Virus record (IMG/VR): IMGVR_UViG_2675903504_000001
Length of the DNA: 5,568 bases
From: a virus
Taxonomy: Duplodnaviria > Heunggongvirae > Uroviricota > Caudoviricetes
Strand: one strand, 5' to 3'
Below are positions 1,771-5,568 of the stretch, piece by piece; position 1 is the first letter of the stretch; every line of letters begins with the position of its first letter. Position numbers and translations under genes: made by a program. The notes under the pieces are model-generated. The model did no database searches. It was not told the DNA's origin and saw only the letters and a list, made by a program, of their open reading frames with translations.

Positions 1771-2244
1771 TTATTTCAGGCATTGCGTCCTGATGTATTC
1801 CTGCAGGTAGTTAACCTGCGCGGTTATCTTGTCGATTCCACTTCGGAGACGGTAATAATTGAGTTCAGCATCTGCTGTAAGTCCTGGGCTTTCTCCATCG
1901 CCCATGCCGCTGGCTCCGGTCGTTGACTTTGCACAGGTGGCGGCGACTTGCAGGCGCTTACGCCCAGCAGAAACATCAGCACGGAGACTTTCGATAGTCG
2001 CGTTAGCATCAGCAAGCTCCTTTGTGTATCTTGCGTCGAGTTCTGCTACATCACGTTGACGCTTCCGCATGTCAGCGATGGTGGCGTTCGCCTTCTCCAG
2101 TTCACTGGCCTTGTTATCGCGCTGCTCTTTGTAGGCGATTGCGTTATCACGGTAATGATTAACAGCCCATGACAGGCAGACGATGATGCAGATAACCAGA
2201 GCATAAATAATCGCGGCGACTCTGCTCACTGATCTATCCCCCAA
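1771..2244 (-). CDS. Rz: Rz i-spanin (inner-membrane spanin subunit)
   Basis: 157-aa ORF with an N-terminal hydrophobic TMD ([20 protein letters not shown]) followed by a charged, coiled-coil-like periplasmic domain. Its start overlaps the 3' end of the endolysin gene by 19 nt and it contains an embedded out-of-frame lipoprotein ORF, the canonical Rz/Rz1 architecture. Confidence 0.85.
1824..2015 (-). CDS. Rz1: Rz1 o-spanin (outer-membrane lipoprotein) embedded in the +1 frame of Rz
   Basis: 63-aa ORF entirely inside Rz in another frame. Signal peptide ends in a lipobox-like VSAC followed by a proline-rich mature region ([16 protein letters not shown]), typical of Rz1. The exact start (Met1 or Met3) is uncertain. 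Confidence 0.65.
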
Positions 2245-2759
2245 CAGGCTAATGCGCTTTCCTGGTCACGACGAATAACCTGTCCATAGCAGTTATTTGA
2301 ACGTATGCGGCAATCGCGCCCACCATCTTTTATCCACCAGCGAATCGCCTCGCATGCACCTTTACGATCACCGGCATTCAGCCGCTTATAAAACGTCGAC
2401 GGGAAACACTTACCGGGGCCAATGTTATAGGGACAAAATGACGCGATACCCGCTTTCTGTGGTTCGGTCAGTGGCACTTTAATATTGCGCTCCACCCATG
2501 CCAGCGCCTTATCCCGTTCAATGGCGTTAACCTGGTCGCATTTTTCCTTCGACAGTTTCATACCGGGAAAAACGGGTTTTCCATCCACCACCGTGGCACC
2601 CCGACAGATGGTCCAGATGCCGGAACCATCGCGGTATGCCGTTGTGTGGTTACCTTCTTTTTCATCCAGAAACTGGTCGAGAATATCAGGCGCAGGCGCA
2701 CCGACGGCAATCAGTGCCAGAACGGCAGCCGACAGGCCGTATCTGATTTTTGCGTTCAT
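2226..2759 (-). CDS. R: SAR (signal-anchor-release) endolysin, GH24 T4-lysozyme-like muramidase
   Basis: 177-aa ORF. N-terminus has K/R followed by a weakly hydrophobic Gly/Ala-rich segment ([18 protein letters not shown]) typical of SAR domains. Catalytic E-x8-D-x5-T triad is present ([16 protein letters not shown]). Size and context match the recalled K-12 Qin RrrQ-type lysozyme. Confidence 0.9.
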
Positions 2760-2864
2760 GGATATTTATCAGGATTTATCGGTTTCTGAACCCTGGATAT
2801 GTTTATCTGTCCCGGCCTGTTGAATCAGGCAAGGAATAGTTAAATACAATAGAGAGGATTGTTT

Positions 2865-2954
2865 ATGGACAATAGCACCATTTCTCTACAGGAGTTGCTC
2901 GACTGCATTTCCAAGCTTCGGGATGATGTAAATGCCCTTACTGTCGCATTTTAA
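2865..2954 (+). CDS. candidate small ORF (29 aa, MDNSTISLQELLDCISKLRDDVNALTVAF) on the strand opposite to the lysis genes
   Basis: ATG at 2865 is preceded by a strong SD (agagagga at 2851-2858, 6-nt spacing); stop is TAA at 2952-2954. It lies in an otherwise unexplained 340-bp gap between the DUF1327-like gene and the endolysin gene. No homology recognised and the peptide is not hydrophobic. Below the ORF-track cutoff, so speculative. Confidence 0.2.
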   Translation: MDNSTISLQELLDCISKLRDDVNALTVAF

Positions 2955-3102
2955 TATCTGGCATTCTCAATTCCCAAGGAACAAATGCAACCAACACTGG
3001 CATCGCTCCAGCTTGAATCACTCAACCCCAAATGGTCCCAGCAACAACAAAATTCTTTCAAGTGGCTGGCGGTATTACTGGAAGAAAAATATGCTGGTGA
3101 AA

Positions 3103-3447
3103 TTACCATTTCGGCGGAGTCTTCAGAGAACCAGTAATTCTTCCCGGTAGCTTTCCTTTGTAGGTTATCCACACATTCTGCGCCTCTAAAATTATGGGGC
3201 GCTTTTCCGGCGACAGCTCATCCCCTTCACATAACCCGGCAGCAACATCCAGGAAGACCTGTCTGATGCTCCTTCTGGCTGCTGCCTCATAAAACTCCAG
3301 CGCGGCACCTTCAACACGGTCCAGCGAGATGTCCAGGTCAAAAATTTCACCGTCAAAGCGTTTTTTGTCCCGTAACGCTAAAGTTACCGTAACTTTATTC
3401 TCAAAATTGCGGATCCCTTTCACAATCAGTTCATAGTTTTGAGTCAT
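3103..3447 (-). CDS. DUF1327-like (YdfR-like) prophage protein located between holin and endolysin
   Basis: 114-aa ORF starting 4 nt after the holin stop, with SD-like GGGGAGAG inside the holin 3' end. The holin - DUF1327 - lysozyme - Rz order matches the recalled essQ-ydfR-rrrQ-rzpQ order of the K-12 Qin prophage. Family assignment is by synteny and recalled N-terminal similarity, not verified. Confidence 0.55.
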   Translation of the reverse strand: MTQNYELIVKGIRNFENKVTVTLALRDKKRFDGEIFDLDISLDRVEGAALEFYEAAARRSIRQVFLDVAAGLCEGDELSPEKRPIILEAQNVWITYKGKLPGRITGSLKTPPKW

Positions 3448-3451
3448 TGAA

Positions 3452-3667
3452 TTACTCTCCCCGTGCAGCCTTACGCTTGTCTTCTTTAATCTTGAAATAA
3501 AGGTTTGTCAGGTACGTCAGCATGCCAAATACCAGGCTACCCAGCACTCCAATTGCCGCCCACTGTGAGGGCGTGACTTTATCTAGCAGCTGTAAAAACC
3601 AGTACCCGGCACTACCTGCTGAGGTGCCATAGGCGACACCCGTTGTTAACTTATCCATGGATTTCAT
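3452..3667 (-). CDS. S: class II pinholin, phage 21 S21-like (71 aa) with dual-start motif
   Basis: 71-aa ORF beginning MKSMDK (Met1 and Met4, the S21-71 antiholin / S21-68 holin dual-start arrangement). Two TMDs are present ([19 protein letters not shown] and [23 protein letters not shown]) with a charged C-terminus ([13 protein letters not shown]). Strong SD GAGGTG lies 6 nt upstream of Met1. Near-identity to phage 21 S / K-12 EssQ is recalled from memory. Confidence 0.9.
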
Positions 3668-3777
3668 AACCCCACCTCGCAGACAAAGCGGGTGTAAATT
3701 GAGGGAATACTACGAAACGTAACAGACTCGGAGTCAGTGAATAACTCAGGTATTGGGTTATCAGCTAATATCGAGAC

Positions 3778-3812
3778 TCAAAAAATGGAAAAACCCGCTC
3801 GACGGCGGGTTT
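3778..3812 (-). terminator. rho-independent terminator on the - strand ~110 bp upstream of the holin start
   Basis: Perfect hairpin aaacccgc/tcgacg/gcgggttt at 3791-3812 (GC core cccgc/gcggg). On the - strand RNA it is followed by UUUUUCCAUUUUUUG (complement of plus 3779-3793). On the + strand it is followed only by UUUAAGC, so it is oriented for - strand transcription. Confidence 0.5.
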
Positions 3813-4240
3813 AAGCTGTGTGACGAAGTAACCACTCTTAACAGCATAACCAATTTTTTACGTACGTAAACCACTAAATGATATTTGCGAGAATGCTACC
3901 GAGTATTGAAAACACCACTACAAATACATAAGCAAATCTCAACAAATAACCAACAAATAATTTCCAGTGTTATTTTTAGCCGGTTTAAATTGAACCTTCA
4001 AATTATAGAGCACTTATAAATAACAGCCGTTAATATAAATTGGCTAATAGATTTATTTTTATTCAGCCAAGAGCCATGAATAGGATTCGATAGAAAAAAG
4101 TTCAGATAAAAATAGAGATCTACTTCACAAATCAAACGAGAAACCAAAACTTACATCTTGAAATAATCACATTGATTAGATGAATATTTATCGCGCAGTG
4201 ACATCATTTTTTAATAATAGTTCAAAAAAAAGGGCTCACG
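3813..4240. promoter_or_regulatory. AT-rich divergent regulatory region upstream of the porin gene, with an OmpR-box-like motif and candidate promoter elements
   Basis: About 430 bp of A/T-rich sequence with many A-tracts. TTACATCTTGAAAT at 4151-4164 resembles recalled OmpR-site sequence from ompC/ompF promoters (ACATTTTGAAAC). Candidate -35 TTGAAA (4158-4163) and -10 GAATAT (4182-4187) with 18-bp spacing. Porin SD aaggg lies ~8-12 nt before ATG 4241. Promoter assignment is weak. Confidence 0.35.
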
Positions 4241-5323
4241 ATGAAAAAATTAACAGTGGCAATTTCTGCTGTAGCTGCATCAGTACTGATGGCGATGTCT
4301 GCTCAGGCAGCTGAAATTTATAATAAAGACAGTAACAAGCTGGATCTGTACGGGAAAGTTAATGCTAAGCACTACTTCTCCTCTAATGATGCAGATGATG
4401 GTGATACTACTTATGCCCGTCTTGGCTTCAAAGGTGAAACCCAAATCAACGATCAACTGACTGGTTTCGGTCAGTGGGAATATGAATTCAAAGGCAACCG
4501 CGCTGAATCTCAAGGTTCCTCCAAAGATAAAACCCGTCTTGCCTTCGCTGGCCTGAAATTCGGTGACTACGGCTCCATCGATTATGGCCGTAACTACGGT
4601 GTAGCATACGATATTGGTGCATGGACCGACGTTCTGCCAGAATTCGGTGGCGATACCTGGACCCAAACAGATGTATTCATGACTGGTCGCACCACAGGTG
4701 TTGCAACTTATCGTAACAACGACTTCTTTGGTCTGGTTGATGGTCTGAACTTTGCTGCTCAGTATCAGGGTAAAAATGACCGCACTGACGTAACTCAAGC
4801 TAATGGTGATGGTTTCGGTTTCTCCACTACTTATGAGTATGAAGGTTTCGGCGTAGGTGCAACCTATGCTAAATCTGACCGCACTAATAATCAGGTTATC
4901 TACGGTAACAACAGCCTGAATGCATCTGGTCAAAATGCTGAAGTATGGGCAGCTGGTCTGAAATATGATGCGAACAACATCTATCTGGCTACCACCTATT
5001 CTGAAACCCAGAACATGACTGTTTTTGGTAATAACCATATTGCCAACAAAGCACAAAACTTCGAAGTAGTTGCACAATATCAGTTCGACTTCGGTCTGCG
5101 TCCGTCCGTTGCTTACCTGCAATCTAAAGGAAAAGACTTGGGTGCGTGGGGTGATCAGGACCTGGTTGAATATATTGATGTAGGTGCAACCTATTACTTC
5201 AACAAAAATATGTCCACTTTTGTTGATTACAAAATCAACCTGATTGATAAGAGCGATTTCACGAAAGCATCTGGCGTTGCTACCGATGATATCGTTGCTG
5301 TAGGTATGGTTTACCAGTTCTAA
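4241..5323 (+). CDS. nmpC: outer-membrane general porin, OmpC/OmpF/PhoE superfamily; prophage-encoded NmpC/Lc (OmpD-like) type
   Basis: 360-aa ORF with signal peptide [23 protein letters not shown] / AEIYNKD. Porin hallmarks throughout: [109 protein letters not shown], and C-terminal aromatic F (VYQF). N-terminus and overall sequence match recalled E. coli NmpC / phage PA-2 Lc. Location between the phage late regulator region and the holin matches the DLP12 quuD-nmpC-essD arrangement. Confidence 0.93.
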
Positions 5324-5338
5324 TTTGATTACTAAAAG

Positions 5339-5421
5339 ATATGTTGCGGGAGGCTTTGCCTCCCCAACATATAAGTGGCTCCCTCAAGCCACTTCCTTTA
5401 GAAGCACAACCTTGCTTCTAA
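5339..5421. other. array of three immediately adjacent perfect or near-perfect stem-loops; the first (5339-5372) is a candidate - strand terminator (tR'-like)
   Basis: Hairpin A 5339-5372: atatgttg-c-gggaggc/ttt/gcctccc-caacatat (15 bp with a 1-nt bulge). Hairpin B 5373-5394: aagtggct/ccctca/agccactt (8 bp). Hairpin C 5398-5421: ttagaagca/caacct/tgcttctaa (9 bp). On the - strand RNA, hairpin A is followed by CUUUUAGUAAUC; on the + strand it is not followed by a U-run. Confidence 0.45.
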
Positions 5422-5450
5422 CTATATAAACCTTCTGTTATATATTACCC

Positions 5451-5486
5451 TTTATTTTTGGGGGCGTTGCAACGCCCCATTTTTAA
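5451..5486 (+). terminator. rho-independent terminator of the porin gene
   Basis: Perfect GC-rich palindrome ggggcgttgcaacgcccc at 5461-5478, preceded by tttatttttg and followed on the + strand by AUUUUUAAUAAC (T5 at 5480-5484). On the - strand it is followed by an A-run, so it is + strand specific. Confidence 0.6.
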
Positions 5487-5511
5487 TAACTTTTAGTAAA
5501 CAACTGGCATA

Positions 5512-5568
5512 TTAATTAGAGTTATTAACAACGATATCCATCTCTAACGTAAGCGTCGTCTCAGCACC
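5512..5568 (-). CDS. 3' end of a - strand ORF entering from the right edge (candidate late antiterminator Q-like gene; identity not established)
   Basis: One - strand frame is open from the window edge and ends at TAA (plus 5512-5514), encoding ...GAETTLTLEMDIVVNNSN*. The position immediately upstream of a promoter-like / hairpin / terminator module and the lysis genes is where Q lies in lambdoid phages. Only 18 codons are visible, so the call is positional inference. Confidence 0.3.
   Translation of the reverse strand, partial: GAETTLTLEMDIVVNNSN

Follow-up and report, generated by a model that had tools for sequence, protein, structure and literature searches.

The stretch of DNA studied here, which we call the window, comprises 5,568 nucleotides (nt) of a Caudoviricetes virus (IMG/VR record IMGVR_UViG_2675903504_000001) and corresponds to the late-control and lysis region of a lambdoid prophage of the DLP12/PA-2 type. 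Read from right to left on the minus strand, it carries the 3' end of the antiterminator gene Q, a porin gene in antisense orientation, an AT-rich spacer, a hairpin, and the genes for a pinholin, a DUF1327 protein, an endolysin and the spanins Rz/Rz1 (Table 1). The order Q, antisense porin, holin is common to prophage DLP12 of Escherichia coli K-12 (quuD, nmpC, essD), phage 434B and phage PA-2. The hairpin, at 3812-3791, is the subject of this work. We conclude, with a probability of about 0.8, that it is tR', the intrinsic terminator that closely follows the late promoter pR', and that it acts as the gate at which antitermination by Q controls the lysis genes.

Table 1. Features of the window discussed in the text (positions count from the first nucleotide; transcript coordinates refer to the putative pR' start).
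Feature	Position	Strand	Remarks
Terminator hairpin AAACCCGC-CGTCGA-GCGGGTTT	3791-3812	-	approximately +25 to +46 of the pR' transcript
U-tract UUUUUCCAUUUUUU	3780-3793	-	read from the sequence; the three leading U are paired with AAA at the stem base
Small 5' leader stem GUGGU/GUCAC	3820-3835	-	approximately +2 to +17
TGnTAAGAGTG, holding the likely start (about 3836-3838)	3833-3842	-	candidate sigma-dependent pause element
pR' -10 TATGCT	3843-3848	-	16-bp spacer from the -35; aligns with TATCAT of the VT2-Sakai pR'
pR' -35 TTTACG (3870-3865) within the perfect palindrome TTTACGTACGTAAA	3857-3870	-	aligns with the annotated pR' of VT2-Sakai and SC370; palindrome is a candidate Q-binding element
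essDp of DLP12, sigma-E type, GAACTA-16 nt-TCACT	4190-4225	-	+1 near 4192
Spanin genes: Rz with embedded Rz1-like open reading frame (ORF) 1824-2015	1771-2244	-	from the ORF list; homologues annotated i-spanin/o-spanin
Endolysin gene	2226-2759	-	PF00959, E = 1.4e-24; label "SAR-type" taken from the annotation of homologues
DUF1327 gene	3103-3447	-	PF07041, E = 4.1e-42; between the holin and endolysin genes
S21-type pinholin/antiholin gene, 71 aa, dual start MKSM	3452-3667	-	PF04971, E = 3.2e-35; first late gene past the putative terminator
Porin gene, NmpC/Lc type	4241-5323	+	PF00267 (Porin_1), E = 3.7e-153; antisense to Q and to the late operon
3' end of Q, C-terminus ...TLEMDIVVNNSN before the stop	5512-5568	-	last 18 codons; gene runs past the right edge of the window; Q21/933W family

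The stem of the hairpin consists of 8 bp, five of them G-C pairs, and encloses a loop of 6 nt; on the minus strand it is directly followed by TTCCATTTTTT (3790-3780), and 112 nt separate it from the ATG of the holin gene at 3667. This is the form of an intrinsic terminator, a G+C-rich stem-loop directly followed by a U-run on the transcribed strand, with the U-run interrupted, and the original prediction of such a minus-strand structure between the porin gene and an S21-type holin gene is borne out. The same prediction called the terminator strong, a label that the interrupted U-tract justifies only in part; termination efficiency, like Q-dependent read-through at this locus, is what we infer. 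Since no T-run lies 3' of the stem on the plus strand, the site is unidirectional. When the hairpin was folded alone, its energy was -12.0 kcal/mol, its z-score was -3.6 and one in 200 shuffled sequences folded equally well, whereas the 61-nt context around it reached a z of -1.8 only. In the whole window, 8 terminator-like matches were counted as against 5.1 +/- 2.5 expected from shuffles, and between 3600 and 4300 the hairpin itself was the single match, with 0.6 expected. By itself, the pattern of hairpin and T-tail is therefore not beyond chance, and it is because of the comparison with related loci, that is, the conserved block of about 83 bp and the early terminators found across the family, that we consider the hairpin more than a chance occurrence. 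The scan of 3600-4300 revealed no second terminator before the holin gene of the kind present in 933W. Rfam, searched at E up to 1, gave no match in the hairpin region and holds no family for StxS, the small RNA of Stx phages discussed below, for the leader or for the rest of the K-12 region. A divergent small RNA at the porin promoter, analogous to micF at ompC, was considered and rejected, given the lack of any Rfam match at this threshold and the homology to pR', which explains the region.

The conserved block spans 3871-3789 and is shared with 933W/VT2-Sakai (77% to VT2-Sakai) and with PhiR55_1 (85%). A sensitive search with 3668-3870 returned 360 phage records, only 36 of which covered 80% or more of the query; the remainder mostly matched 3789-3870 alone, the part that follows closely on Q in Stx phages. 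The block bears three annotations in VT2-Sakai and SC370, namely 'putative late promoter' (pR'), 'putative Q-utilization' and, as the first of its kind, 'possible rho-independent terminator'. BLAST similarity to VT2-Sakai has one boundary at 3871, upstream of which a few bases resembling the last Q codons can be recognized by inspection, and the other right after the U-run (3789). The segment 3870-3843 is thus homologous to the mapped Sakai pR' and, judged by this homology, is a putative sigma-70 late promoter whose start would lie about 25 nt upstream of the stem. These observations favour the first of two options in the original prediction, namely that the hairpin is the real tR' with pR' just to its right, and they agree with its claim that expression of the lysis genes is gated by Q antitermination, the homology extending over a cassette of pR', Q-utilization site (qut) and terminator, and Q dependence being presumed from it. 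The cassette occurs as a single copy; no second one was found after Q or elsewhere in the window. It is annotated neither in the K-12 RefSeq genome nor in the curated 434B record. Of 5426 complete E. coli genomes, 2658 carry the stretch 3668-3900 and, among the top matches listed, no annotated feature lies beneath it. The corresponding nmpC-essD spacer of K-12 has been listed as an AT-rich, H-NS-bound 'promoter island'.

The start of pR' was mapped by differential RNA sequencing, and the 3' end of its transcript by Term-seq, in both Stx prophages of strain Sakai (Sy 2020, PMC7547250), where a 258-nt RNA arises from pR' and is cut by RNase E at +173, between GU and AUU. When both anchors were projected onto the VT2-Sakai sequence, +1 fell within AAGA of TAAGAG. 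By alignment, the start in the window would be at 3836-3838, which corresponds to about 577,227-577,229 of K-12 MG1655 and is 5-7 nt past the -10; the transcript position given for the hairpin in Table 1 follows from it. The U-run ends at about +57, and an RNA with its 3' end in the U-tract would measure some 47-57 nt. TGnTAAGAGTG overlaps this putative start, in a register uncertain by a few bases relative to the mapped one, and resembles the phage 21 pause element TAAGCTG (+2 to +8). Its core TAAGAGT recurred with little variation in the family sample described below, and TAA and the final T were invariant in an alignment of 47 sequences. Part of this leader conservation is by construction, since the module finder accepted only sequences with TAAGAGT, allowing a single mismatch in it, and a (G/A/T/C)CTTA or GTTTA motif. 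TAAGAGT, TGGTTAC and other hexamers were weighed as pause elements, and none was assigned with confidence. As for the small 5' leader stem, 79% of cells in the alignment pair, against 21-60% when the partner column was slid; it includes one covarying pair (AU 15, GC 14, GU 9) and also forms in the single-sequence fold. The support for a real stem is suggestive only. The leader as a whole (3811-3840, about -3 to +26) contains TGnTAAGAGTG, the 5' stem and CACACAGCUUA, and is kept across Enterobacterales under differing promoter classes. A pause signal, RNA stability and a small-RNA seed are candidate roles for it.

The family was surveyed in two samples, one of 120 viral contigs collected by the leader motif and one of 80 species-representative genome loci collected by similarity of the Q protein and hence unbiased toward the DNA motif. 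The test for a terminator was strict: the stem had to be perfect, 5 bp or longer and with four or more G-C pairs, and a T-rich tail had to follow. Of 104 unique cassettes, 85 (82%) had such a structure, its start falling between +26 and +68 with a median of +32, as compared with 0.8% in shuffled sequences and 1.7% in random windows of the same loci. The terminators used 22 different inner stems (CCCGC/GCGGG, CTCGC/GCGGG, CTGCC/GGCGG and others), which means that the structure is kept while the sequence changes. An intrinsic terminator shortly past the start and before the late genes is therefore a family trait, and the window has one at that place.

Among the 80 loci sampled by protein, 51 had a cassette within 4 kb of Q, adjacent to it in 33 and displaced by 0.9-2.9 kb in 18. 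There were at least seven promoter classes, which differ in a palindrome overlapping the -35 and the spacer: TTTACGnnCGTAAA, ACGCGTACGCA, GCGGnCCGC, TGTAATTACA, TGGAATTCCA, TTCGTTACGAA and TGTTATAACA. When the Q proteins were clustered (68% identity, single linkage), cluster and palindrome class corresponded one to one, without exception, in 137 loci of seven classes, loci that are not independent, many being related prophages. The pairing held for adjacent as well as displaced cassettes (0.6-2.9 kb), with 32 and 36 loci, respectively, in the class of the window and 7 and 18 in another. Since each Q cluster pairs with one palindrome class, the sequence comparison argues that a displaced cassette is the cognate pR' of the Q gene upstream of it, and it suggests that the palindrome is a candidate specificity site for Q. 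One locus (L012) combines a Q of a different cluster and the matching palindrome ACGCGTACGCA with a leader, hairpin and lysis region identical to those of the window, so a mosaic junction must lie at about the -10 or the start site.

The translated tail of Q in the window matches the C-terminus of DLP12 QuuD and of the 434B Q; full-length homologues from near-identical loci have 127 aa and belong to PF06530 (E = 3.5e-53), as does the VT2-Sakai Q, to which the DLP12/434B Q is 78% identical. We use the name 'Q21/Q933W family' after Yin et al. (bioRxiv 10.1101/651190). In 933W, the last Q codons, AAT AGT TTA CGA TCG TAA, themselves form the -35 of pR' and the palindrome. The window-type Q ends a few codons past ...LEMD with a different tail, and the cassette reappears beyond the porin gene; a gap of about 1.6-1.67 kb, occupied by the antisense porin gene, extends from the Q stop (5512) to the -35 (3870). 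Q immediately upstream of pR', a usual but not obligatory feature of such cassettes, is thus missing here. Our scan of the window detected neither a terminator-like site nor a consensus promoter on the minus strand between 5512 and the cassette. A porin cassette is inserted between Q and its own promoter, and late transcription would therefore begin downstream of the porin gene without crossing it. Consequently, we do not follow the original prediction where it had a late transcript come from the right and run antisense through the whole porin gene: there is a single cassette copy, it lies left of the porin gene, and the same split recurs in other prophages. The further idea that late transcription could shut off the porin falls with this premise. 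Only early, pR-derived read-through leaving Q could, by inference, cross the porin gene antisense, and untranslated RNA of this kind would be exposed to Rho.

The gap between Q and pR' (3871-5511 in the window) is a recurrent insertion site, occupied as well in L005, L009, L010, L012, L026, L027, L048, L059, L063 and L106. The inserts measure 0.6-2.9 kb; most large ORFs in them run antisense to Q. Besides the porin gene, they include anti-phage defence genes, coding for Kiwa KwaB (L106, E = 2e-126), for a KAP-type NTPase of PDC-S20 (L026, E = 1e-177) and for an HNH protein, PDC-M68A (L059).

Among the closest known systems are those of the Stx phages 933W, VT2-Sakai and H-19B, with which the window shares the homologous segment of about 83 bp: TTTACG within the palindrome TTTACGnnCGTAAA, the -10, TAAGAGTGGTTAC around the start, which is invariant between the window and VT2-Sakai in the alignment, and the hairpin AACCCGC...GCGGGTT with its U-run. 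They differ in that Q overlaps the promoter and that a second terminator, at +258, ends the StxS precursor ahead of the tRNA and stx genes, whereas in the window Q lies about 1.67 kb away behind the antisense porin gene and no second terminator precedes the holin. StxS itself (PMC7547250) originates at the homologous promoter and has a precursor that includes counterparts of the leader and of the hairpin; its functional 3' part of 74 nt, with the rpoS-pairing seed and the +258 terminator, has no counterpart in the window, which is thus not a member of that small RNA family.

Phage 21, the type phage of the family, resembles the window in having a Q of PF06530, a TAAG-containing element at the start, an intrinsic terminator completed within about 50 nt, and an S21 holin and SAR endolysin downstream; a Q site is embedded in its promoter, as is the candidate site in that of the window. 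Its curated record marks pR', the Q-binding element, the start and, between +2 and +8, a pause element, together with the terminator (tR') at +3 to +50, and the latter segment folds as one hairpin followed by U7. A terminator some 50 nt from the start is therefore a known pattern of the Q21/933W family. Unlike the window, phage 21 has a single long hairpin that begins at +3, a Q gene that abuts the promoter and tRNA genes after the terminator; its Q21 shares only about 30% protein similarity with the window-type Q, and its Q-binding element is a direct repeat (ATTGAGCA/AATGAGCA) between -35 and -10, while the candidate in the window is a palindrome overlapping the -35. The pR'-tR' region of lambda, source of the 6S RNA, follows the same logic of a late promoter that is constitutive, a sigma-dependent pause soon after the start, a terminator ahead of the lysis genes and Q-dependent read-through. 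It differs in that Q-lambda belongs to the unrelated family PF03589, tR' lies at +194, Q adjoins the promoter and there is no sequence similarity.

Based on these comparisons, sigma-70 polymerase would start at about 3837 on the minus strand from the -35 and -10 at 3870-3865 and 3848-3843 and copy the conserved leader of about 25 nt. Without Q, it would stop at the hairpin and U-tract (3812-3780) and release an RNA of about 50 nt, and this stop would keep the holin, endolysin and spanin genes silent. Upon induction, Q would be expressed from its gene beyond the antisense porin gene (3' end at 5512-5568) and, as a member of the Q21/933W family, would bind its promoter site, probably the palindrome TTTACGTACGTAAA. 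Structural studies on Q21 complexes have shown that Q forms a nozzle on the RNA-exit channel that stops terminator hairpins from forming, and that loading requires a binding site and an early sigma-70-dependent pause near the start (bioRxiv 10.1101/651190). The Q of the window would likewise load onto the early-paused polymerase and block terminator hairpins, and the modified polymerase would then read through into the lysis and later genes. The mechanism is the textbook Q/tR' gate, and the locus is an ordinary, so far unannotated member of the late cassettes of Q21/933W type.

Several findings weigh against this assignment. The U-tract is broken by CCA. The promoter agrees with the consensus at only 8 of 12 positions, and a consensus scan does not report it. 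Among the K-12 RNA 3' ends in the supplements of Adams 2021, nothing maps to 577,275-577,285, which corresponds to 3790-3780 of the window. In Stx phages, the first hairpin is passed without Q often enough to yield an abundant 258-nt StxS precursor (PMC7547250); since this homologue is passed without Q, the hairpin of the window may be only partly efficient. The Q21-binding element is a direct repeat and not a palindrome. In the PA-2 lineage (at least 14 loci, among them L002, which is PA-2, L006, L017, L022 and L024), GCGGG in the 3' arm is changed to GCTGG at the equivalent of position 3796, the resulting C.U mismatch abolishes the predicted hairpin, and the allele has a minimum free energy of -8.4 without the stem. 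PA-2, however, is known as an isolated, plaque-forming phage. The same lineage also has a 16-nt insertion further downstream. Finally, the published DLP12 promoter, essDp, differs from the pR' identified here. We derived its position from the -121/+650 amplicon and the primers given in the part of PMC7918800 that cites Rueggeberg 2015; it lies about 350 nt upstream of the 933W-type pR' and abuts the start codon of the porin gene on the other strand. As far as it is cited in PMC7918800, the essDp work (Rueggeberg 2013, 2015) concerned the same type of locus and held that the DLP12 Q controls the lysis cassette, and the same source, in a passage relying on the literature, describes the DLP12 lysis genes as expressed in a Q-dependent manner. 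Transcripts from essDp would meet the hairpin as well.

The hairpin could chiefly attenuate transcripts from essDp, which would reach it some 380 nt into a long 5' untranslated region, while the adjoining 933W-like promoter would be inactive. This possibility, which is compatible with a tR'-type terminator, draws on the promoter region and primers reported in PMC7918800 (citing Rueggeberg 2015), which put the +1 near 4192 by the GAACTA-16 nt-TCACT motif, and on the listing of the spacer as a promoter island. We nevertheless regard it as unlikely, since the cassettes of the family keep promoter, leader and terminator together whatever adjoins them upstream, the upstream sequence is Q coding sequence in the adjacent arrangements, and known Q loading depends on a binding site and a sigma-70-dependent pause close to the start. 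It appears slightly less probable that the element is above all the gene of a constitutive, trans-acting small RNA of about 50 nt, composed of the 5' stem, the single-stranded CACACAGCUUA and the terminator, comparable to StxS, with the gating of late genes only secondary. The pR' promoters are constitutive in lysogens, and StxS illustrates that a terminated RNA can regulate; moreover, a sequence like CACACAGCUUA recurs with variation in the leader, partly by construction of the module finder, the 5' stem has modest support, and the element is widespread (2658 of 5426 genomes). But the active part of StxS is its 3' 74 nt, without a homologue in the window, where similarity ends at 3789, conservation of the leader is also expected from pause and Q-loading signals acting at the DNA level, and neither an Rfam family nor an annotation corresponds to such an RNA.

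The second option of the original prediction, read as a pR' adjoining the end of Q, right of the porin gene, from which the late transcript runs antisense across that gene, with the hairpin as a second barrier passed by Q-modified polymerase only, seems to us very improbable. Q normally adjoins pR' in lambdoid phages, and with no minus-strand terminator-like site from 5512 to the hairpin, transcripts leaving Q would meet the hairpin first. Yet no promoter cassette or consensus promoter follows Q in the window; Q is shortened after LEMD and the cassette stands left of the porin gene, whereas in 933W the -35 and palindrome are part of the last Q codons; Q cluster and palindrome class co-vary perfectly in the displaced loci; and the same split of Q and pR' is seen with many unrelated inserts. 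That the hairpin is a chance inverted repeat without function has next to no probability. Although the count of terminator patterns in the window does not exceed that in shuffles and the 61-nt context folds with a z of only -1.8, the position and structure are kept with 22 stems, at 82% against 1-2% in controls, and the hairpin is homologous to annotated terminators. Together, this leaves tR' of the displaced pR' as the preferred reading. An extension of it, which we consider rather doubtful, is that the pR' leader of about 50 nt is more than a by-product, being either a constitutive regulatory small RNA or a cis-acting RNA element needed by antiterminators of the Q21/933W type; in the latter case, the sigma-70 pR', and not the sigma-E promoter essDp, would be the real late promoter of DLP12.

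Homologues of the porin are annotated porin, lc or nmpC in phage 434B, PA-2 and K-12, and those of the holin in 434B and phage 21 antiholin/holin class II. The interval between holin and endolysin genes (2760-3447) contains, besides the DUF1327 gene, a 343-nt spacer with small plus-strand ORFs at 2866-2953 and 2985-3137, unlike K-12 DLP12, 434B and phage 21, where the endolysin gene directly follows the holin gene. In the 3' region of the porin gene (5324-5490), the plus strand has three hairpins in a row, the last of which, GGGGCGTTGCAACGCCCC followed by ATTTTT, forms a plus-strand terminator at 5461-5478. A small RNA, IpeX, has been described downstream of nmpC in DLP12. Rfam gave no match for this porin 3' hairpin region.

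Taken together, the analysis places a late promoter, start and terminator for a prophage module present in about half of the complete E. coli genomes, and revises the view that late transcription has to run across the porin gene. The split of Q and pR', the Q/palindrome pairing, the conserved leader and the conflict with essDp are by-products of moderate interest. The discrepancy with the published sigma-E promoter of the DLP12 lysis cassette is flagged here; this cassette has been linked to biofilm and vesicle phenotypes. For the family, the displaced loci indicate that Q and its promoter can be separated by inserted genes without loss of their specific pairing.

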